DNA from: Candidatus Hydrothermarchaeota archaeon
GTDB lineage: Archaea > CAYFZR01
DNA: 64,000 nucleotides
Direction of reading: 5' to 3'
Assembly: GCA_046760505.1 (NCBI GenBank)
Contig: JBHIEG010000009.1
Span: forward strand, 8,021-72,020
Positions 1,268 to 64,000 of the stretch are shown here, one piece after another; the first letter of the stretch is position 1; each line of letters starts with the position of its first letter. The notes under the pieces were generated by a model that worked only from the letters and a program-made list of their open reading frames with translations, was not told the origin of the DNA and did no database searches. The position numbers and the translations under genes were made by a program.

Positions 1268-1374
1268 TTGCACCAACGTTTTATAACTCGGTAGTTCATT
1301 TTAACTTATTTTGTTGTAATTTACCTTGATTCGACATATAAAGTATGACATAAAAAGACGGTATGAAAATAAAA

Positions 1375-2772
1375 CTATTCTGCGCAACAACTCATCTTCG
1401 TTACATCTCTTTTAAAAGATGTTGCAACCAGTTTTATTGCCTCCGCCATGGTTGGAAACACATGGACCGTATCGATGATGTCATCAATGGTTAGTTTATA
1501 CTTTACCGCGAGCACTCCTTCGTGTATCATTTCAGCAGCGAAGGGGGCAAGAATATGAATGCCGAGAATGCGTTTTGTGTCTCTCTCAATGACCATCTTT
1601 ATCAAACCTCTTGTGTCTTTAATGACGTTTGCCTTTGGAACAAGTTTCATAGGCAAAGTTTTGCATACGCAGTTGTAACCTTTTTCCAATGCTTCTTTAT
1701 CTGTTAATCCTACACTTGCTACTTGGGGAGATGTGAAAACTGCGTGAGGTATTGCAAAGTAATCCATCTTTATTCCTTTATTTTTTAAAGCATTTTCAGC
1801 CGCTATAGAGCCTTCTTTTGCTGCTGTGGTCTCGAGCATCGGCTTTCCAATCACGTCTCCTGCTGCATAAATGTGTTTAGCCGTAGTTTGCATCTCGTCG
1901 TTTACTACTATGGCTCCATTTTTGTCAACTTCAACACCAACCTTGTCTAAACCCAGGCCTTCTGTGTTTGGTTTTCTTCCCGTCGCCATAAGAATCTTTT
2001 CTCCCTTGAATTCTCTTTTTTCTCCTCTAACTTCCGCTTTAACTACTTTGCAATCCCCTTCCCTTCTTACGCTTTTGATCGTAACTCCAGTATGAATCTC
2101 TATCCCCTCCTCTTCAAGGTATTTTCTCAAAGCTATAGAGATCTCTGGCTCTTCATCAGGTAATATTAATGGGCTTCTCTGCAGCATCGTAACCTCAGTA
2201 CCAAAGTGAGCATACATCTGGGCGAACTCACATGCCAATGCTCTTCCTCCTATTATGATCATTGATTCCGGCAGTTCTTTAAGATCTAATGCTTCTACAT
2301 TTGTGAGGTAATCGATCTCTTCGATTCCCTTGATTTTCATGATGTTTGGCGAAGAACCTGTTGCTACTATAAATTTTTCCCCATAAAGCGTCTTTCCGTT
2401 TACCGAAACTTCATTTTTTGATGTAAAGAAAGCCCTTCCTCTAATCAAGGAGACTCCCGGGAGTGAATTTGCAACGTCAATGTACTTCTCCTTTCTCAAA
2501 TTCTTTACTAAATTATCTTTTTCGTGCATAACTCTACCGAAGTCTAAGGTTGATCTCACCTCCAACCCTCTAAGCCCGTGATTTTCATAGTAATGAATTT
2601 CTCCGACGTGAAGTAGGTGTTTCGTTGGTATGCAGCCCACATTAACGCATGTTCCCCCTATAACTCCTCTCTCTATCATCGCTATATTCGCTCCTAAATC
2701 AGATGCCTTTATTGCAGCTCCAAATGCAGCGGACCCGCTTCCTAGAATGATCAAATCATATTTTTCCATCAT
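1375..2772 (-). CDS. merA: Mercuric reductase (no N-terminal NmerA domain)
   Basis: GSGSAA FAD motif, GGTCVNVGCIP redox disulfide, C-terminal SCCAE cysteine pair. Confidence 0.93.
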   Translation of the reverse strand: MMEKYDLIILGSGSAAFGAAIKASDLGANIAMIERGVIGGTCVNVGCIPTKHLLHVGEIHYYENHGLRGLEVRSTLDFGRVMHEKDNLVKNLRKEKYIDVANSLPGVSLIRGRAFFTSKNEVSVNGKTLYGEKFIVATGSSPNIMKIKGIEEIDYLTNVEALDLKELPESMIIIGGRALACEFAQMYAHFGTEVTMLQRSPLILPDEEPEISIALRKYLEEEGIEIHTGVTIKSVRREGDCKVVKAEVRGEKREFKGEKILMATGRKPNTEGLGLDKVGVEVDKNGAIVVNDEMQTTAKHIYAAGDVIGKPMLETTAAKEGSIAAENALKNKGIKMDYFAIPHAVFTSPQVASVGLTDKEALEKGYNCVCKTLPMKLVPKANVIKDTRGLIKMVIERDTKRILGIHILAPFAAEMIHEGVLAVKYKLTIDDIIDTVHVFPTMAEAIKLVATSFKRDVTKMSCCAE

Positions 2773-17052: not shown

Positions 17053-18594
17053 GTGATTATGAGGATCTTAGCAGTAACCGGACAATTTGCTAAGGAAGAT
17101 GTAAGGAGATTTTCAAAGGATTATGACGTAGATGTTATTGATTTGCCTGTAACAGTTGCGGCGTTCCTGACACCAAAAAAAATAGCCTCTTATCTAAAAC
17201 AAAAAGACGTTACAAGGTACGATTTTTTGCTGACCCCTGGTTTGGTCAGGGGAGACGTTGGATATATAGAAAGGGAGCTAGGCATTCCAACCTACAAGGG
17301 ACCTAGAACTGCTGCAGATTTACCTGTTTTGTTGAGTTTAATAGAAAGATTCAAAAAGGTAAAATTATCGAAAACAGTTCCTGCATGTGTATTTATAAAA
17401 GAGAAACTCGAAAAAGAGATAAAAAAAGAAATAGACAGGTACAGAGAAGACAGGGAATTAATAAACAATCTTCTGGGTAGAGAAGGTAATTTTTTAATCA
17501 AAGACTTGCCATTAGGCAAAGATTTTCCAATGAGGGTGCTAGCAGAGGTTGTAAATGCCCCAATTCTAAAGAAAAGAGAGCTTATAGCGAAAGTAGAGTA
17601 TTATATTTCCAATGGAGCCGACATGATAGATTTAGGTATGATTGCAGGGGAAGATTATGCGAAGAAGGCCGGAAAACTCGTAAAGATAGTTAAGGATAAT
17701 TTTGATTGTCCGGTCAGTATAGATTCAATGAACCCTGAAGAAATATGGTCTGGGGTAAATAAAGGTGCTGATTTAGTATTAAGCGGAGACAAAAGCAATC
17801 TGGATGATCTCAGTGGTATTGATGTTCCAGTGGTCATAGTTCCAACAGACTACTCTAGGGAATACGTGCCCCATAAATTTGAGGAGAGGATTAAATTGCT
17901 AAAAGAGAACATAGATATTGCCTTGAGGAATAAAATTTTTCCTATAGCAGACCCACTTTTGGATCCAATTCATTCTACGAGTCTAAGTGAGTCTATAGCA
18001 ACATGTGTTTTATTTAGAAGAGAATTTAAAAACATTCCTTTATTTTTTGGTTTAGGAAATGTTACAGAATTGTTAGATGCCGATTCCCCGGGTGCAACCG
18101 CTGTTCTAGCGGGAATAGCCTCTGAACTGGACGCTTGCATACTATTTGCTCCAGAGGCAAGTGATAAGACAAGAAAAAATATAAGAGAACTTTCTATCGC
18201 ATCAAAGATGATGTTTATATCAAAAATAAGGAGGTCTCCACCAAAAGACATAGGAATAGATTTGCTAACGATAAAAGAAAAAAGAAAAAAAGGAGAAACA
18301 CTTGATATTGATGTAACAAAGGTAGAAGCAAAAGAGAAGAAAGGATACAGACTGGATCCTGCAGGTATTTTTAGAATAATCGTAGACAACCGTATAAGGG
18401 CGATACACTTCCTTAACGGCAAGCCTACGCTAGAAATAGTGGGAGAAAATGCCAAGGAGATATGCGACGAAATAATGAGGAGAAATTTAGTATCAATGTT
18501 AGATCATGCTTTTTACTTGGGAAGAGAACTTTGTAAAGCAGAGATAGCCTTAAAATTAGATAAAAGTTATATCCAGGACCTTCCTCTCTTCTGA
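17053..18594 (+). CDS. Dihydropteroate synthase-like protein with C-terminal DUF4346
   Basis: GADMIDLG, VSIDS, GLGNVTELLDADSPG, DPAGIF...HAFYLGRELCKAE. Confidence 0.85.
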   Translation: MIMRILAVTGQFAKEDVRRFSKDYDVDVIDLPVTVAAFLTPKKIASYLKQKDVTRYDFLLTPGLVRGDVGYIERELGIPTYKGPRTAADLPVLLSLIERFKKVKLSKTVPACVFIKEKLEKEIKKEIDRYREDRELINNLLGREGNFLIKDLPLGKDFPMRVLAEVVNAPILKKRELIAKVEYYISNGADMIDLGMIAGEDYAKKAGKLVKIVKDNFDCPVSIDSMNPEEIWSGVNKGADLVLSGDKSNLDDLSGIDVPVVIVPTDYSREYVPHKFEERIKLLKENIDIALRNKIFPIADPLLDPIHSTSLSESIATCVLFRREFKNIPLFFGLGNVTELLDADSPGATAVLAGIASELDACILFAPEASDKTRKNIRELSIASKMMFISKIRRSPPKDIGIDLLTIKEKRKKGETLDIDVTKVEAKEKKGYRLDPAGIFRIIVDNRIRAIHFLNGKPTLEIVGENAKEICDEIMRRNLVSMLDHAFYLGRELCKAEIALKLDKSYIQDLPLF

Positions 18595-18599
18595 AATTT

Positions 18600-19433
18600 C
18601 TATATCCAAAAATCATCGACATCTTTAATTTTTTTCCAGTTATCAAAGGATGAAGTCCAAACTAAATCGTGTACGGTTAATCTACCTTCTCTTATCCACT
18701 CCTTAACAGTCTTTAGATCAACAGGACCATACTTTCTTCCTTCTTTAAAAACATACCAAGTTTGAGGCTTTTCTGGTTTTTTTACGGAATCCCTGATTTT
18801 TTGTACAATTATTGCATCATCTTTTTCGAGATAGGTCCATGGCTCTCTCACCTTCCAGGTGATCTTTCCGCATATCGGGGGCTCAGGATAGGCTCCAGGA
18901 TCATACAATCTATAACCCATGAATTCGGTTGGCTCCTCTTGATAACAAGACCGAACCGCTTCCCTTATCACATCAGGGCTTCCTTCGTTTAGAAGATCGA
19001 TTAAAGTTATTTGATTCCTGAACCTTTCGATGGCTTCTATTTTTACATTATAGAGAAAAGGGGTTGGGGCTTCTGTACCAATTATTTTTCTTTTTTTGTC
19101 CACTCCGTTTTTTATAAAGGCTATAAAAGCATCTCCTGTTAGATGTCCCAAAGATTCTCTTCCGCAGAGAATTATGTATCGGATGTTGGGGTTCGCCACC
19201 ACGTTTGTTATGATCTTTTCTATTCCTATGTTTTCTGTTTGTAACATTCCGGCCAATGCTGCGCCAGTTTCTATAGAAACCCTGACGATTTCTTCTAGAT
19301 ATAGAGGTATTTCTGTGTCCCATGTATTGAGAATCGCAACAACAGCCACGGGAGAATAATCGTTTCCTCTCAGATATCTTCCTTCTTCGGGAGGGTAATC
19401 TGGACAGGGCTTTACCTTCAGTATCTCCTCCAC
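18600..19433 (-). CDS. MtrA/MtxA-like corrinoid protein with C-terminal GYF_2-like domain
   Basis: TENIGIEKIITNVVANPNIRYIILCGRESLGH; tail WYV..GRKYGP...WIREGRL...LVW. Confidence 0.8.
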   Translation of the reverse strand: MEEILKVKPCPDYPPEEGRYLRGNDYSPVAVVAILNTWDTEIPLYLEEIVRVSIETGAALAGMLQTENIGIEKIITNVVANPNIRYIILCGRESLGHLTGDAFIAFIKNGVDKKRKIIGTEAPTPFLYNVKIEAIERFRNQITLIDLLNEGSPDVIREAVRSCYQEEPTEFMGYRLYDPGAYPEPPICGKITWKVREPWTYLEKDDAIIVQKIRDSVKKPEKPQTWYVFKEGRKYGPVDLKTVKEWIREGRLTVHDLVWTSSFDNWKKIKDVDDFWI

Positions 19434-22698: not shown

Positions 22699-23961
22699 AT
22701 GAAAAGGGTGAGTTTGCTACCTGGAGAGTATTTAACCATAGAGGGAGCTGCAAGATTAAACATAAAAGAAGGTGAAGTTTTAATCGGTGAAAAGGAATAT
22801 TTTGAAGGTGAAGAATACATAATTTTGCGTGGCGATAAGATCTTTGTTAAAGCGATGAAAGAATCAACTCTAGAAATATTTCTAGGCACTGGTGGTTCTA
22901 TAAAAAAAGTTGAGCAGGTAATACCAGAGAGTTGGGTTAAAGCGGCTAAAGCAATCTTAGATCATGAAAAACCATGCGTGTCCATGATAGTTGGAGGAGT
23001 GGATACAGGAAAGACAACTTTAACTACTTATATCGCAAATCAATGTTTTGAAAACAACTTAAGGACGATAGTTATAGATGCCGACCTTGGACAATCCAGT
23101 ATAGGACCTCCAACCACGATTTCTTTGGGAATCGTGAATAGGAAAATAAGCAGATTGTCCGATTTGAACATGGAAAGCGGATTCTTTGTAGGTTCTACTT
23201 CTCCAAATCACCATTTATTACAGTGCATATCTGGTTTAAGGTTGCTTCTAGACAAGGCACTTCAGCTCAAAGGAGATGTGATACTGATAGATACATCTGG
23301 AATGATATCGGGAGGTCCTGGAAGGGCTTTAAAGATTCATAAAACCATGCTAATAAAGCCAAATTTCTTATTTATTCTCAGAAAAGGGAAAGAACTGGAT
23401 TACCTCATTAATATATTTCGAAATATAAATGTTCGCCCGCTAGAAGTACCAGAAGAAGTCAGGGGAACATCTAGAGAAGAAAGGAGATTTTTCAGGGAAT
23501 TGGCATTCAGAAACTACTTCTCAAATGCCAGAGAAATAGAATTTGATCTGAAAAAAGTAAAGGTTATTGGAACATTTTTTGGCACAGGCACCGTTGATGA
23601 AGAAATGAAATACAAAATCTCTTCATTCTTTAAGGAAAAAATAAATTATTGTGAGAATTTGGGTGAAGGGTATTTAATTGTAACTGAAAAACCTAGGCAA
23701 GGAAGAGTTAGAAACGATTTTGATAGGCAGTTTAAAGTTTTAGAAAAAGGTTTTGAAGAGCAAATTCTCGTTGGATTGTTGGACGGAGATCAAGAACTTC
23801 TAGATCTAGGAATAATGAGAAGAATTGACTATTCAAATAAAAAAGCATATGTTTACTCCCCGACTATCGATCCTGATAAAATCAATACGATAAAGTTGGG
23901 TTCAATAAGGATAAAAGAGGATGGAAAGGAAATAGGCTTCATTCCTTTGGGTAGTTTTTGA
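22699..23961 (+). CDS. Clp1/Grc3/Nol9-family polynucleotide 5'-kinase
   Basis: GGVDTGKTT, DADLGQSSIGPP, IDTSG, RTSREERRFFRE lid. Confidence 0.9.
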   Translation: MKRVSLLPGEYLTIEGAARLNIKEGEVLIGEKEYFEGEEYIILRGDKIFVKAMKESTLEIFLGTGGSIKKVEQVIPESWVKAAKAILDHEKPCVSMIVGGVDTGKTTLTTYIANQCFENNLRTIVIDADLGQSSIGPPTTISLGIVNRKISRLSDLNMESGFFVGSTSPNHHLLQCISGLRLLLDKALQLKGDVILIDTSGMISGGPGRALKIHKTMLIKPNFLFILRKGKELDYLINIFRNINVRPLEVPEEVRGTSREERRFFRELAFRNYFSNAREIEFDLKKVKVIGTFFGTGTVDEEMKYKISSFFKEKINYCENLGEGYLIVTEKPRQGRVRNDFDRQFKVLEKGFEEQILVGLLDGDQELLDLGIMRRIDYSNKKAYVYSPTIDPDKINTIKLGSIRIKEDGKEIGFIPLGSF

Positions 23962-24969
23962 TCAAGGACCTTCCATGTAGTCGTATAGGTCCCCATCAAC
24001 TCTTTCCTCGTAGATTATATTCTTATCTTTGATTAATTCTATTCTGAATAGATTTGACTTGTACCATCTTTTGGTTGGCTCCGGGACTTCTTCAGAAACG
24101 CCTTCTCCCCTATATAATTTGGCAATCTCTGGATAAAGTTCGTACGTGCTGAAGTTTCTTCTTATATCGGTAACTACGAATCCCATGTCCATTAAAGATT
24201 TTTCTACAAAATACCATCTTGAAAGAGGCGCATCTGTGAAGGTCATTGAGAAGTATCCGGAACCTTCCTCCTTTAAGCATTCTAATCCTCTACATACAAA
24301 CAAAGTTAGTGCAATCGCTGTATCAGGAGGATCTGTGGTAAAACAATCGAATTTATCTCTCAGATCTCTAGGAATCGGATCTCTAAGGTCAAATCTAATG
24401 GTTTTAATTCCAAGTTCCTGATCGTTTATGAATTCCAATATCCTTTCGTCAATATCTATTGCTGTCACTTTCTTTGCCAAGCCAGTCATTGCAATCGCTA
24501 TGCTTACAAGATCATCGTCTCCCAAAACGATGATGTTCTTTCCATCTATATCTCCATAGTTGAGCATGAATAAAACCCTTGCAATTGTGGAATCTGTAGT
24601 TATGAATGATTGATCGTATTCAGGCACGTTGTAAGGTCTGTTTCTAGAAATTTCCTCGAATTCTTTAAGAAAATCATCATCGATTGCTATTCCTCTTCCA
24701 TCACACTCTGGACAAACTTTATCTCCCACTTCTTTTACACCTAATTCTTCCGCAAAATTCTCTCCCTCTTTAGTAAGAGAGAATCTATAATTATTCTCGT
24801 CAACGTAACCATTTTTTCTAAGGATCTTGAGTGTTTTTGTTAGTTCTCGCATTGGTACTGCGGAAAATGAGGCAATCTCCCAAATATCCAAATCTTTTTT
24901 AAGCAGAGCCCTCAAAATTTCTCTAACATATCTCATTCTTGTTACTCCCATCTCTCTTATCGTCTTCAC
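23962..24969 (-). CDS. bpsA: Branched-chain polyamine synthase (N4-bis(aminopropyl)spermidine synthase)
   Basis: CPECDGRG, EYDQ, LGDDDLVSIA, DIDER, TDPP. Confidence 0.85.
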   Translation of the reverse strand: MKTIREMGVTRMRYVREILRALLKKDLDIWEIASFSAVPMRELTKTLKILRKNGYVDENNYRFSLTKEGENFAEELGVKEVGDKVCPECDGRGIAIDDDFLKEFEEISRNRPYNVPEYDQSFITTDSTIARVLFMLNYGDIDGKNIIVLGDDDLVSIAIAMTGLAKKVTAIDIDERILEFINDQELGIKTIRFDLRDPIPRDLRDKFDCFTTDPPDTAIALTLFVCRGLECLKEEGSGYFSMTFTDAPLSRWYFVEKSLMDMGFVVTDIRRNFSTYELYPEIAKLYRGEGVSEEVPEPTKRWYKSNLFRIELIKDKNIIYEERVDGDLYDYMEGP

Positions 24970-25165
24970 CTCCGGTGTGATAATTTAGCCTAGATTATTG
25001 CTTTTCGTTTTTGGTCGATAAAACTTATGGTGTATTTCAAGATTTAATCAAAAATGTAAAAAAAGTCTACAAGGTTTTTTAAGCAAAAAAAACATTTTGA
25101 CACTTTCCTGTTAAGAATAGAGCCGAATAGAAAAGTTTATATCTTTAAAGTTACACTTCATATTT

Positions 25166-25333
25166 GCCCCAAGCAGATCGGGAAAACTTGCGACGAGGTG
25201 AACCGCTCAGCATCGAGAATTCGATGTTGAACGGGGTGGTAGTTGCAAGAACGATACCACGATGCAAAGAACCAGTTGAAAAACTGGGGAAGGTGTCGGT
25301 GGCCAGTATCGAAGTACCGAGACTGCTTGGGGC
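25166..25333 (+). ncRNA. Candidate structured non-coding RNA of unknown family (~168 nt)
   Basis: GC-rich island; 11-bp terminal helix GCCCCAAGCAG/CTGCTTGGGGC, two nested arms, upstream BRE/TATA (gaaaagtttata ~25130-25141), downstream T6. Confidence 0.72.
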
Positions 25334-25339
25334 TTTTTT
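25334..25339 (+). terminator. Oligo-T terminator after the ncRNA candidate
   Basis: TTTTTT directly after the closing helix. Confidence 0.55.
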
Positions 25340-25365
25340 ATTGTTTCTTCTAACTTATTGATAGT

Positions 25366-26157
25366 TTAATTTTTCAAAGCACTTGCAAGCGCAACAGCAT
25401 TTTCGTAGTTTGGGCTTACTCTGGAGGTATCGACGAACACCCTGTCTATGTTTACTACTGGAGCGCCAAAGCCCTTTCCTCCCCCTAAAAGGACTAGGGT
25501 TCTGAAGATAAGGTTTCCTGTTATTCCATCTGGCACTATAATAATGTTAGCCTCTTTCACTGCATCTTCTATAAGTATTTCATAGTGCTTGCAATCCACC
25601 TTTTCTTTTAGTATGCTAGCCAGATATTCGCCTTCCATCAATGTTTTATCAACTCTTTCGTCTCTTCCCAAGTCCTGCTTCCTACCTCCAGATATTATAC
25701 CAACCCTTGGCTTTATATCGATTTTTTTTGCAATCTCTGCTCCGAATTCCACGAATTCTAATTTCTCCAAAGGTGTTCTGCCTTCATCTATTCCGACCGG
25801 GGCAAGAAAAAAATATCTGTCCTTTGGAGTACCCAGCAAAGCCATTCTCAATATTTTCGGATAATATTTTTTAAGGAAAGATAACGTATCGCTAGCGGGT
25901 AGAGACCCCCTCACTGCTCCCTCTACATCTCCCTTCATCAACAACTCTATCAGAGTCAAACATGGGTCATCGCTCACTATAGTTTCGACAAGCCTAGATT
26001 TTTTTTGAGAAACCAAAACCACGTCAGCATATCCTTTTTCGATTGCGCTAATCGCCTTTTCTTCAGCTCTTTCAAAATATCCTTTTTTTTCTGTTCCCGC
26101 TCCTAAGGCTATTCTAGCCTTATTCCTTTTTGCCATTTCGTATATTTTTTGGATCAT
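25366..26157 (-). CDS. mtxX: MtxX / methanogenesis marker 4 protein
   Basis: [44 protein letters not shown]. Confidence 0.87.
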
Positions 26158-26174
26158 GCTAGAAATTGATGGGA

Positions 26175-26852
26175 TTAGATAATATCTTTTTCGAGATTTG
26201 ATGTTATTTCTCTAATTTCATTCAATTTTTTTTCTAAGTATTCAATGACTTCTTCATCTGTTAAATCGGGAAAACTTTCGTAGAAACTTGCGACTGCAAA
26301 AAATGGTCTGTCATCTGATATTAAATTTACAATTTCATCTGCTTCAGGCTCAACAACCTCAATTGCTCTTGCAGAGGCAGTAGGAACTGCTATTATTATC
26401 TTTCTGGGGTTAAACTTTTTCAAATATTTTAAAGCCGCGAGCATAGTAAAGCCGCTTGCCAGTCCATCATCCACAACTATGACATTCTTGCCAGTTATTT
26501 CAGGGAATGGTTTTTCTTTACGATATTTTTTTATCCTCCTACTCACTTCCATCATTACCTTTCTTGCCAAGAATTCGATTTCTCTTGGTTCTAGTCTTAA
26601 GTAAGAGACAAGGGGTTCATTAAGAACTATTGTTCCATCTGCGGTTACAGCCCCAAATCCTGCCTCAGGATCACTTGGTATGGGAATCTTCCTTACGACT
26701 ACAACATCCAAAGGCGCGTTAATCTTTTTTGAAATTCTGTAGGCTACTGGGACTCCACCCCGGGGTATGGCTAAAACTATTGCATCCTCCTTATATTCAG
26801 CCAATTTTTCCCCGAGTATTTTCCCGGCTTCCTCTCTATCTTTAAATATCAT
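26175..26852 (-). CDS. Phosphoribosyltransferase
   Basis: FKDREEAG, LAIPRGGVP, VVDDGLASGFT. Confidence 0.9.
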   Translation of the reverse strand: MIFKDREEAGKILGEKLAEYKEDAIVLAIPRGGVPVAYRISKKINAPLDVVVVRKIPIPSDPEAGFGAVTADGTIVLNEPLVSYLRLEPREIEFLARKVMMEVSRRIKKYRKEKPFPEITGKNVIVVDDGLASGFTMLAALKYLKKFNPRKIIIAVPTASARAIEVVEPEADEIVNLISDDRPFFAVASFYESFPDLTDEEVIEYLEKKLNEIREITSNLEKDII

Positions 26853-27126
26853 ATTCCAGATCTTTCTTTTACTACTTTCTTTAAAAATGCATTACTATAC
26901 AAACATGCTTCAGATATATCTGAGCTGATGTATTCTATAAAAATAAGAAATATTATAAAAAATTATAAAAAAATAGGTGGGGAGGGTGTGGGGCTAAGGC
27001 AGGCGATATAAATGTGTGTTAACCATAAAATAAATTCTTCCTATACATTTTTGCTAAGAATTCGTGAAAATCTGTTCAGATCAATTTTAATTTTCGACCC
27101 CTCAGAGGGCAACAATTATCTAAGGA

Positions 27127-28275
27127 TTACCTAAAGAAGTACAAAAGCAAACTTATTGCTCTTTCAAACAGCGACATTTCTTCTTTCGATCTTACAATAA
27201 ATTTAATTTGGAAGTCTTTTCCAACACCTTCATTGCTTTTCAAACTTGCAGTAAAATCGTACTCACCTAAGAATGGAGGGGGGATATTTAATTTAACCAA
27301 AAAGTATTCTGTCTTATTTGATTCTAAAATTAAGCTCTCAGGCTCAATTTTAACTATCCACTTCCTTAATTCCGGAGGAAATTCTAGGGTTACATTGTGC
27401 AAGGGCTCTTTTTTTATTTTGCTTTTCATAGATACCGGTATTTTAATATTTACCTCCTCACCTTGGTAAACTTCTACTGGTTCTTTAAGATCCACAATGA
27501 TTTTCCTATCATCTACCACTTTTTTACCCACATATTTCTTCCCATCTTCAATGTTTTCTTTCAATTCTTCGAGGCTGTTACCAACCGCGAAAATTACAGG
27601 AATCTCAAATTCCTTTATTACATTTTTAGCATCCCACTGAAGGGCAATTGCTGGGTCGTCTATGTTTGTTTTGAGAGCGTTGTTAAGACTGTCATTTTTT
27701 ATATGAAGCCATAGTTTGGAGTAAGGAGTGCTTAAGTCATGCCTTGATGGTTTTATGGGAGATGAAATACCAACGTAGGTTTTCTCGTGTATATAAGCGA
27801 TATCGTTTAATTCGTCATATTTTCCATAATCAAAGTTTACTGTGGCATCTACATCGAAATCTACTCCCTGATAGAACTTTATCGATTCTAAAGGTCTTTT
27901 TGGAACTATTTTATAACTTATTATGAGCCACTTTCTGTCTGGCGGCAAAAAGATATTCCTTTCAACTGATATTTCGTCGTCTGAAAAGATGGATCTGGTT
28001 TTGTTTATTATGTTTCCTTTCAAAACCCTTAGATTTTTTAAAGGATAAGTATTCTCAGACGTATAGATCTTTTTTCCGTATCTTATGCAGAATCTCTCCA
28101 AATAAAGGTGATCCGCATTTCTATAAAATAAATTTGTTGAAGATCCTAGGCTCGCTTCCAACTTCATAACATCGTTGGAAACGATGAGTTCTTCTTTTTT
28201 CAAAATTTCTGGTTTCTGAGAGAAGCCAATTATAATTATAGTGGTTAGCAGAGATACAATCACCAAATTTCTCAT
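27127..28275 (-). CDS. Secreted/surface protein of unknown function
   Basis: N-terminal signal-like segment, beta-rich body, hydrophobic C-terminus. Confidence 0.65.
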   Translation of the reverse strand: MRNLVIVSLLTTIIIIGFSQKPEILKKEELIVSNDVMKLEASLGSSTNLFYRNADHLYLERFCIRYGKKIYTSENTYPLKNLRVLKGNIINKTRSIFSDDEISVERNIFLPPDRKWLIISYKIVPKRPLESIKFYQGVDFDVDATVNFDYGKYDELNDIAYIHEKTYVGISSPIKPSRHDLSTPYSKLWLHIKNDSLNNALKTNIDDPAIALQWDAKNVIKEFEIPVIFAVGNSLEELKENIEDGKKYVGKKVVDDRKIIVDLKEPVEVYQGEEVNIKIPVSMKSKIKKEPLHNVTLEFPPELRKWIVKIEPESLILESNKTEYFLVKLNIPPPFLGEYDFTASLKSNEGVGKDFQIKFIVRSKEEMSLFERAISLLLYFFR

Positions 28276-35877: not shown

Positions 35878-37437
35878 ATGAGGAAAACATATTTTTTGAT
35901 AATTACAATAATCTTAATATCTCAAATAGGATTTTCTCAAATATCTGGGAGAATTTGCTGTCCTGAGCCGGAGATAGAGGGAGGAATAAAACAGGAAACC
36001 TCAGGACCTTTTGCAATTACACTCGTTACATCTGATCCTTCTCCAATAAGACCTGGAGACAGGGACGTACAACTGAATATCTGGATTGAGTACAGAGAAG
36101 AGAGAACTATAGAGGATTTGAGCGTTCAATTGGCTATAGATAAACCGTTTTCTCTAGCAAGAAAAGGTGGCTCTTTGGCGTATATCGGCATGCTTGGACA
36201 GTACGGAGAAGGAAAATGCGAGTTTTACGTAAACGTTGATGAATCCGCTATATCCAACGTTTATGAATTGGAACTTTTATTTTCTTATTTAAAGGACGGC
36301 GAAAGAGTTTTTTCAAAAGAAAAAGTAAAGATACCTGTAGAAGGAAAGGCAGAGATAGTTTTAACGAATTTAAAAACAGAGCCCGAGACAGTTTCACCGG
36401 GAGAAAGCGCATTGGTTTCCATGAGCATAGAAAATAGTGGAACCGGAGATGCAAGAAGTTTCTGGATTGTATTGGAGCCAGAATATCCTTTTACAGTAGA
36501 TAAGAATGAATACTACTTAGGAACATTAAATCCCGGCGAGAAGAATGATTTAAAATTTTTACTATACGTAGACGATCTGGCAGAAGAAAAGACCTATCCA
36601 TTGAATTTAGATATAAGATACGAAGACGAATCCGGAGGTATACACGAAGCAACACGAAGGATGGGTATTTCTGTTCAAGAAAAAGATTCTCTGATGGTAG
36701 AAAAAACCATTACCGACCCAAAAAAAATAAAACCCGGAGATGAAAATGTCCTGTTGAAAATTTTTATTGTAAATGCTGGTGGAAAAATTCTAAAAAACGT
36801 GGATGCCAAACTATTAACTTTTGAAGGAATAAAACCTTCTTGGACTGGGGCAGAAAGGAAATTCCTAGGAAATTTATTACCCTATCACTCAGCGGAATGC
36901 GATTTCTATTTGGACATAGATGATGACATGAAATCAGGCATATATCCCCTTAAACTTGAATTAGTTTACAGTGGAGGGAGCACTACAAAAGTAATACAGA
37001 CCAAGGTCTCTGCTCACGCAAGATTTGAGATAGGAAACTTAACACATAACAAGGCGGTTCAGGGCGGCTCAGTCAAGATCCATATCCCAGTAAAAAATGT
37101 TGGAGATGAAAAAGCAGAATCTGTTAAAGTACAGCTAAAAACACCAAATTATTTCACAGGATACAAAACGAGTTATCTTGGAACAATAGGACCAGGAGAG
37201 AGCGATACCGCTGTTTTTGATCTAGATATCGACAAAGAGGCGGAACCAGATGAGTACCTGATAGATGTAAAGATATTCTGGGACGAGGATGAGGAAAGAT
37301 ACACGGATACAGAGACCTTCTCCTTGCGCGTATACAAGAGCTGGATGAGAATGTATCTTTTTTTGGTACTTACTATACTCGTTATTTTGCTTATAAGCGT
37401 GGCTATAAAGGTAAAAAAACAGAGAAAGGAGGAGTAA
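35878..37437 (+). CDS. COG1361 S-layer-family protein
   Basis: Signal peptide, repeated NxGxxxA / YLGTLxPGE Ig-like units, C-terminal TM. Confidence 0.82.
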   Translation: MRKTYFLIITIILISQIGFSQISGRICCPEPEIEGGIKQETSGPFAITLVTSDPSPIRPGDRDVQLNIWIEYREERTIEDLSVQLAIDKPFSLARKGGSLAYIGMLGQYGEGKCEFYVNVDESAISNVYELELLFSYLKDGERVFSKEKVKIPVEGKAEIVLTNLKTEPETVSPGESALVSMSIENSGTGDARSFWIVLEPEYPFTVDKNEYYLGTLNPGEKNDLKFLLYVDDLAEEKTYPLNLDIRYEDESGGIHEATRRMGISVQEKDSLMVEKTITDPKKIKPGDENVLLKIFIVNAGGKILKNVDAKLLTFEGIKPSWTGAERKFLGNLLPYHSAECDFYLDIDDDMKSGIYPLKLELVYSGGSTTKVIQTKVSAHARFEIGNLTHNKAVQGGSVKIHIPVKNVGDEKAESVKVQLKTPNYFTGYKTSYLGTIGPGESDTAVFDLDIDKEAEPDEYLIDVKIFWDEDEERYTDTETFSLRVYKSWMRMYLFLVLTILVILLISVAIKVKKQRKEE

Positions 37438-63906: not shown

Positions 63907-63984
63907 GGGGCCGTGGGGTAGTTTGGTCCATCCTCTCGGACTGGGGGTCCGGTGACTCGAGTTCAAATCTCGGCGGCCCCACCA
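63907..63984 (+). tRNA. tRNA-Pro(GGG), CCA encoded
   Basis: Acceptor GGGGCCG/CGGCCCC-A-CCA, anticodon loop CT-GGG-GG, T-loop TTCAAAT. Confidence 0.95.
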
Positions 63985-64000
63985 CGACCTTCTAAAAGGT

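Follow-up and report, generated by a model that had tools for sequence, protein, structure and literature searches.

A candidate structured RNA gene of no known family in a genus of uncultured hydrothermal-vent archaea

The stretch of DNA analyzed here, 64,000 nt long and called the window in what follows, very probably contains a real structured RNA gene that belongs to no known family and is read from the + strand. The element spans positions 25166-25333 and has a length of about 168 nt, or about 168-174 nt for the predicted transcript with its short U tail. We lean, with some reserve, towards a fuller statement: that this is a single-copy and independently transcribed gene of a stable noncoding RNA, which would act in trans as the RNA of a ribonucleoprotein by means of docking sites. 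We read it as a new stable RNA that is restricted to one genus and may serve as a protein-binding scaffold; taken by itself, the scaffolding mechanism is a tentative proposal. An earlier reading of the window, made from the letters and their open reading frames (the sequence-only reading), had proposed a stable trans-acting RNA, possibly of a new archaeal class. Its interpretation is supported by the present analysis, in which the putative class comprises two distinct sequences, both of a single genus.

Genomic setting and gene signals

The element lies between bpsA (23962-24969; Pfam BpsA_C, E 4.8e-73) and mtxX (25366-26157; NCBIfam TIGR03270 Mmp4/MtxX, 233.8 bits for a cut-off of 190), both encoded on the - strand. 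It forms an island with a G+C content of 0.51 (150-nt segment 25175-25324), while the remaining segments of this length in 23000-27500 have about 0.27-0.44. A sister species of the same genus (G001, the genome of the window being G000) carries a copy of the RNA directly upstream of bpsA, in synteny with the window, on a contig that ends about 180 nt after the RNA. At this contig end (L003:1800-1868, about 120 nt downstream of the RNA) there are two G-rich direct repeats (ATGGGGGTG..AGAGAGGGGGT..), which are probably the reason for the break in the assembly.

Archaeal promoters follow a consensus in which a BRE precedes a TATA box. Such a core promoter is present on the + strand upstream of the element, at 25129-25143, where the BRE-like purine-rich AGAAAAG is followed by the TATA box TTTATATC (25136-25143). 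It includes the string gaaaagtttata (25130-25141) and is conserved in G001. The 3' end of the TATA box is 22 nt before G25166, which is the first base of the helix that joins the ends of the RNA (P1) and the predicted transcription start. In the RNase P RNA gene of this organism, AAAGTTCTTATATC also ends 22 nt before the mature 5' end, and the TATA sequence (AAAGTTcTTATATC) is nearly identical to that of the element, with equal spacing. The SRP RNA and 5S genes of this genome have TATA-like boxes 21-22 nt upstream. Hence, the promoter of the element fits the stable-RNA promoters of the organism in both geometry and sequence.

At the other end of the element, a T6 run (25334-25339, + strand) comes directly 3' of P1, and in G001 a T6 run follows after one A. 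Oligo-T is generally known to stop the archaeal RNA polymerase, just as the promoter geometry used above is general knowledge, and the run is a likely terminator of this kind. Since the start is at the first base of P1 and the T6 right after its last one, the predicted primary transcript is the folded unit with a short U tail. The sequence-only reading had noted the promoter and the T run as signals of a gene of its own, which agrees with the spacing found at the RNase P RNA gene. It had also argued from the lack of a same-strand gene downstream; the ORFs of at least 200 aa are indeed all on the - strand as far as 28275, with only short overlapping frames otherwise, and we rejected a riboswitch or another cis-acting leader on the + strand on these grounds.

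Farther upstream, about 52-69 nt before the predicted start, there is an imperfect palindrome, TTGACA-N6-TGTTAA (25097-25114, + strand), which is perfect in G001 (TTGACA-N6-TGTCAA) and may be a binding site for a regulator. We found only one other site with the pattern TTGACA-N6-TGTYAA elsewhere in the genome (C11:37434-37451; controls 1+1), and no regulon is evident. A direct repeat, GAATAGA x2, adjoins the palindrome at 25115-25131. The region from about -123 to -31 upstream of the RNA aligns with G001, and positions 24975-25042 do not.

Two other observations concern the stable RNAs of this genome and the neighborhood of mtxX. An 18-nt motif, CACGACCTTCTRAAAGGT, which contains a small hairpin (ACCTT-CTRA-AAGGT), occurs directly 3' of the tRNA gene of the window (63907-63981) and of the RNase P RNA gene, with sites at 63982-64000 of the window, G000:C11:16834-16851, and G000:C33:17004-17043. 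When up to 2 mismatches are allowed, the genome has 4 copies and the reversed-pattern control has none. Stable RNAs may share this motif as a signal for termination or for the processing of their 3' ends, or it may be a small repeat; it is absent at the new RNA. On the side of mtxX, the same genome encodes MtxX/Mmp4 (233.8 bits) together with a pterin-binding protein (17053-18594) and a protein in which an MtrA-like part is fused to a GYF domain (18600-19433). MCR_alpha (PF02249) has no match in this assembly, which is rated 100% complete with 5.67% contamination. The lineage may thus have an mtx-type methyltransferase system without methyl-coenzyme M reductase, as far as its gene content can tell.

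Predicted structure of the RNA

The sequence-only reading had claimed an RNA structured beyond chance, and the folding energies bear this out. The minimum free energy (MFE) of 25160-25340 (181 nt) is -80.3 kcal/mol, against -48.1 +/- 3.8 kcal/mol for 200 dinucleotide-preserving shuffles (z = -8.4), none of which is as good. The helices, motifs, promoter, and T6 run that it had listed are each found where it had placed them. The fold is a three-way junction, with the 11-bp helix P1 joining the ends and two long arms, P2 and P3, all described here on the + strand. P1 is rich in G+C and pairs GCCCCAAGCAG (25166-25176) with CUGCUUGGGGC (25323-25333); two C>U changes in G001 turn pairs of this helix into G-U pairs. 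Next to it comes a composite of helix and motif whose strands are 25178-25184 and 25313-25320. The helix, P1b, pairs UCGG (25178-25181) with CCGA (25317-25320), and the motif consists of a GAA half (25182-25184) and an AGUA half (25313-25316), within GGAA at 25181-25184 and AGUAC at 25313-25317. This AGUA/GAA motif resembles the sarcin-ricin or loop-E consensus, and we read it as a putative motif of that type.

Arm P2 (25187-25249) begins with an 8-bp stem, in which CUUGCGAC (25187-25194) pairs with GUUGCAAG (25242-25249), and continues with a purine-rich internal loop, GAGGUGAA/GGUGGUA. In its distal part, CCG and CGG enclose a 10-bp hairpin, UCAGCAUCGA-GAAU-UCGAUGUUGA, whose GAAU cap is GAGA in G001. 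This distal hairpin is the most variable part of the RNA between the two species, with indels, and appears to behave like a spacer.

Arm P3 (25252-25311) contains, from base to tip, the helix P3a (CGAUAC, 25252-25257, with GUAUCG, 25306-25311), the loop CA/GUGGCCA, the helix P3b (CGAUGC, 25260-25265, with GUGUCG, 25293-25298), the loop AAAGAA/GGAAG, and the hairpin P3c (CCAGUU-GAAA-AACUGG, 25272-25287). The hairpin had been correctly described before, but the single GAUACC/GGUGUC helix that was said to enclose it gives way to the two nested 6-bp helices P3a and P3b, which are preferred by the MFE, by RNAalifold, and by the sister species, where the last pair of the single helix is lost. The count of three G-U pairs given by the sequence-only reading also has to be revised, as the consensus structure has seven in the window copy.

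The unpaired segments of the RNA are nearly all purines and are located within the internal loops and the AGUA/GAA motif. Reading the element by eye against the consensus definitions, we found no K-turn, no BHB (the motif of splicing or circularization), and no 11-nt GNRA-receptor motif.

Proposed function

The mechanism that we propose would start with the BRE and TATA box setting the start of transcription at the first base of the G+C-rich P1, and with the oligo-T stopping it right after P1. The transcript would fold from P1 through the 4-bp helix and the AGUA/GAA motif into the three-way junction with its two arms, one of them capped by GAAA. The clamping of the ends by P1 would make the RNA long-lived at high temperature, while the AGUA/GAA motif and the internal loops would be docking sites for one or several proteins, or for tertiary contacts. 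The RNA would then act in trans as part of a stable ribonucleoprotein, and neither as an antisense regulator nor as a cis element.

We favor protein binding because the unpaired bases are almost all purines in conserved internal loops and in the AGUA/GAA motif and do not form an accessible antisense seed, and because the most variable part of the RNA is the spacer-like distal hairpin of P2. The purine-rich conserved loops, which take the place of exposed seeds with pyrimidines, point weakly to protein binding. The comparison is based on two distinct sequences and one strain SNP from a single genus, and loop conservation at 84-91% identity says little. We identified neither a partner protein nor a defined protein-binding motif for the element.

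The main rival to protein binding is a regulatory decoy. More generally, the RNA could be a trans-acting regulator and not a scaffold, which we regard as unlikely: either a base-pairing sRNA, or a decoy that copies the Shine-Dalgarno (SD) sequence and titrates the 3' end of the 16S rRNA or the 30S subunit with its GAGGUGA (25195-25201). Regulation is indeed suggested by the free-standing position of the gene, by its own promoter, and by the conserved palindrome upstream of it. The GAGGUGA is on the 5' side of the internal loop of P2, is conserved in both species, and is identical to ribosome-binding sites upstream of several genes of the window (for example before the ATG at 35878), such as GAGGTGAT and GGAGGT; an SD-like 4-mer is found at -20..-3 in 21 of the 55 long ORFs of the window. 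There are also four copies of GGUG in or beside loops of the RNA.

However, the unpaired bases are, with few exceptions, purines of the internal loops, and there is no long accessible seed. The sole notable antisense match covers 20 of 22 nt, between RNA positions 25279-25300 and G000:C106:1267-1288, and lies inside a 362-aa ORF with an E of about 0.1; we judged it to be at the level of chance and rejected it as a target. Four GGUG in 168 nt are about what chance would give in a purine-rich RNA, by an estimate and not a computation, and the presence of GAGGUGA in the P2 loop could be a coincidence of the same kind. The assembly lacks the 16S 3' end, so that the anti-SD sequence is taken to be the generally known one, and archaea are not known to have an SD-decoy RNA of this kind.

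Comparison with known RNA families

We searched Rfam 15 (4227 models) at the gathering score and then permissively, with E<=10. At the gathering score, the whole window gives only the tRNA at 63907-63981 and nothing at the RNA element. With E<=10, the only match in 25000-25450 is a 19.9-bit snoRNA match in the A+T-rich spacer on the - strand, and the G001 copy gives three matches of 10.7-16.4 bits (E 2.7-3.7), which are far below the cut-offs and of which none is credible. In line with the sequence-only reading, which had recognized no family, none of the 4227 Rfam families accounts for the RNA in either species, even at E<=10.

That reading had also set the element apart from RNase P RNA, SRP RNA, and tRNA, and this separation holds. 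At E<=10, the locus has no match to RNase P RNA (RF00373), to 5S rRNA (RF00001), or to Archaea_SRP (RF01857). The RNase P RNA gene of the genome is on another contig (G000:C11:16852-17172, 198.5 bits), as is a full-length SRP RNA (C2:21290-21606, 196.6 bits, 317 model positions), and the 5S rRNA gene is likewise on a contig other than that of the element (C18:27672-27792, 89.1 bits). A tRNA, tmRNA, or tRNA-like gene was rejected, as ARAGORN reports 0 genes in 24900-25600 and no tRNA model matches there. We also rejected an archaeal H/ACA guide sRNA. In such guides, a hairpin contains a pseudouridylation pocket, its upper stem holds a K-turn or K-loop, and an ACA box follows immediately 3' of its lower stem. 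Here, no ACA comes after GUUGCAAG (25242-25249), which is followed by AAC, or after GUAUCG (25306-25311), which is followed by AAGUA; neither arm shows, by reading, a 3-nt bulge with a tandem G-A/A-G arrangement, and there is no Rfam H/ACA match.

Several known RNAs resemble the element in part. 5S rRNA shares the terminal helix, the three-way junction, the two arms, and the AGUA/GAA motif of the loop-E or sarcin-ricin type, but it has about 120 nt, whereas the element has 168 nt and carries the motif in the end helix and not in an arm. In the S domain of SRP RNA (helices 5, 6, and 8), the closing helix likewise carries a non-canonical internal loop and leads into a three-way junction, from which two side-by-side arms extend with GNRA-type tetraloops and purine-rich internal loops. 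Its role as a scaffold for proteins would be shared by the element if our proposal is correct; in contrast, the element has no Archaea_SRP match, in agreement with the sequence-only reading, which had seen no helix-8 motifs in it. Riboswitches are similar in size, in their multi-stem junctions, and in their conserved internal loops, but the element has no same-strand gene 3' of it on the + strand, its T6 follows directly after the closing helix, and it matches no riboswitch family.

The closest likeness in genomic setting that we considered is with the Hgc RNAs of Methanocaldococcus jannaschii, which are reportedly orphan ncRNA genes found as G+C-rich islands in A+T-rich hyperthermophilic archaea. 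Like them, the element is a structured island rich in G+C (about 50%) in a stretch of about 27-44% G+C, stands free between protein genes of a vent archaeon, and has its own promoter and no known function. Unlike them, it has no Rfam match at E<=10, a search that presumably included the Hgc families, and its three-way junction with clamped ends is peculiar to it.

One may ask if the element belongs to a known family but has diverged very far from it, such as an accessory SRP-S-domain-like RNA, a 5S-like RNA, or another stable RNA that the covariance models no longer reach. The architecture loosely resembles 5S rRNA and the SRP S domain, and the divergence could be large in a lineage as isolated as this one (nearest 16S 83%). 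We nevertheless consider this decidedly unlikely. No family was found at E<=10 with permissive filters in either species, while the canonical RNase P, 5S, and SRP RNAs are detected normally, which means that the models work in this lineage. In the opposite direction, a covariance model of the new RNA (R1) run without filters inside the RNase P, 5S, and SRP RNA genes found nothing, with a best score below 7 bits.

Conservation, probable selection on the fold, and functional strand

The RNA with its promoter is 82.7% identical between the two species, against 76.0% for the flanking coding DNA. Of the 23 substitutions in the span from P1 to P1, 10 affect the 106 columns that are paired in the consensus, and the other 13 are among the 62 columns that are unpaired and free of gaps. 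All 10 changes at paired columns keep a standard pair (8 pairs changed on one side through G-U, and 1 pair changed on both sides from G-C to A-U), a count that is partly circular because the consensus structure was derived from the same two sequences. The compensatory G-C to A-U pair is in arm P2 (columns 32/91), and arm P3 has three wobble-compatible changes in G001. One further substitution, U>C at alignment column 56 in G001, breaks a pair of the MFE fold of the window copy itself. Near the junction, G001 has gained 3 nt (AGA) on the 5' side and 1 nt (C) on the 3' side, by which P1b becomes UCGGG/CCCGA with both GAA and AGUA kept. As the insertions lengthen P1b and keep the motif, the indels at the junction compensate each other.

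A permutation test based on energy, which is independent of the consensus structure, supports selection on the structure as far as two sequences allow. When the real substitutions are put on the window sequence, the MFE is -71.4 kcal/mol, against -55.2 +/- 5.4 kcal/mol for substitutions of the same types placed at random, and only 1 of 300 random placements is as low. The pairs of the window-only MFE fold that are broken in G001 number 5, for 8.0 expected at random (P = 0.05, or P = 0.16 when conditioned on the paired or unpaired class). The sequence-only reading had named covariation among homologs as a check, and this one fared unevenly: the one homolog changes in ways that keep the pairing on the + strand, but 221 of 500 shuffles reach the observed covariation score, a control that has no statistical power with only two distinct sequences.

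A strain variant was also observed in run X4, with four base differences and one 1-nt deletion within 25000-25500 (25069, 25085, 25144, 25156, and 25310). Four of the five are in the spacer or the promoter and none is in the 3' end of mtxX. The one in the RNA, C25310T, changes a G-C pair of P3a into G-U.

These data bear on the possibility that the element has no function and is a G+C-rich palindromic relic, or a remnant in decay, that folds by chance. The RNA is found in one genus only and the comparative data are of low statistical power, both of which would suit a relic. Against this, the fold has a z of -8.4, the element is conserved above the flanking coding DNA, its substitutions preserve the fold in a way matched by 1 of 300 random placements, and both species retain a consensus promoter, correctly spaced, as well as a terminator. 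We give a lack of function a slim chance.

The strand was assigned on similar grounds. All 53 consensus pairs are standard on the + strand in both species, as opposed to 46 of 53 (window) and 44 of 53 (G001) on the - strand, and the G001 copy has an MFE of -74.7 kcal/mol on + for -52.9 kcal/mol on -. On the evidence of these sequences, the functional strand is +, as had been proposed before from the G-U pairs and the GNRA loop.

The reverse assignment, in which the - strand element would be a structure of the 3' UTR or terminator of mtxX, or a riboswitch-like 5' leader of bpsA (196 nt further on), appears highly improbable to us. The reverse complement does fold well (-65.8 kcal/mol, z = -7.3), the order on that strand is mtxX, element, bpsA, and the element adjoins bpsA in G001 too. 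However, 7 of 53 pairs in the window and 9 of 53 in G001 become A-C mismatches on the - strand, where the G001 copy loses 22 kcal/mol, and the C>U or A>G differences between the species keep pairing only on the + strand, for which the BRE/TATA and the T6 are also positioned. T-runs terminate transcription, and a transcript leading into bpsA would be stopped by the T8 (25086-25093) and T7 (25056-25062) runs of the - strand between the element and the gene. The last alternative, a small protein encoded by the 65-aa ORF with a TTG start whose open frame spans the element (25164-25361), can be practically dismissed, as it has no Pfam match, indels of 3, 1, 2, and 1 nt separate the two species within the frame, and the ORFs that G001 has in this region, 1361-1555 (+) and 1491-1730 (-) of L003, are not equivalent to it.

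Distribution

The phylum consists of only two genomes in the taxonomy used, G000 and G001, both of one genus. In a comparison with 150 other archaeal genomes, the nearest 16S shows 83% identity over 766 nt and is in a family of genomes of 1.8-2.2 Mb that all have bpsA. BpsA proteins outside the genus are at most 40% identical. Within the 2.17-Mb assembly, the element is single-copy by BLAST, and the covariance model finds one copy too. This single copy answers the suggestion, raised by the sequence-only reading as a check, of a MITE or dispersed repeat, which we rejected.

Outside the genus, none of the following searches found a homolog. A BLAST search with the 181-nt stretch against 61 genomes and the 2 genomes of the phylum gave, beyond the genus, only short matches of 23-28 nt in three genomes (G014, G032, and G043; E 0.002-0.01) and no homolog. 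With R1 and stricter filters, 151 archaeal genomes were searched and the 149 outside the genus contain none; a match in G052 (E 0.25, 17.2 bits) was rejected as chance, as it falls within a 382-aa ORF and many of its pairs are non-standard. Default filters gave 0 matches in the 5 genomes that are nearest by 16S or by BpsA. With the filters off, R1 was run on 25 of the 28 bpsA loci outside the genus (L084-L108, with L109-L111 excluded), where the best E is 0.27 and no homolog was found.

Pattern scans of further collections recovered only the G001 form of the RNA. In metagenomes, 65 loci carry the pattern and R1 matches only 1 of them (L031), with the same sequence as in G001. In genome contigs, 3 loci carry it and again R1 matches only 1 (L081, a MAG of an uncultured archaeon), also identical to the G001 copy. 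Viral contigs gave 2 pattern matches, neither matched by R1, phage records gave no match to the RNA, and plasmids gave only one match, of 38 nt, with an E of 0.5. The DNA runs in which the locus occurs are hydrothermal-vent metagenomes of one study; four runs were compared, and the DNA of the window may derive from three of them. Among the collections searched, the RNA thus appears to be restricted to one genus of uncultured hydrothermal-vent archaea. A literature search, done by topic because the sequence itself is not searchable in this way, gave no description that can be linked to the element, which is not proof that it is unpublished.

Significance

New classes of sizeable and highly structured ncRNAs are seldom found, and apart from the universal RNAs and the guide RNAs, archaea have few known ones. 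The candidate described here combines clean gene signals with an intricate fold, whose ends are clamped, whose three-way junction has a loop-E-like motif, and which includes a GNRA cap, and it is found in a lineage that has no cultured member. Being compact, it lends itself well to structure determination. In a bolder and more speculative version of our proposal, it could be the first representative of a class of stable structured RNA confined to a phylum-level vent lineage, at the core of a novel ribonucleoprotein; the boldest forms of this idea would have it act on the translation apparatus as an SD mimic through its GAGGUGA, or be catalytic. If expressed, the RNA would mark an unknown ribonucleoprotein or RNA function that is specific to this lineage.
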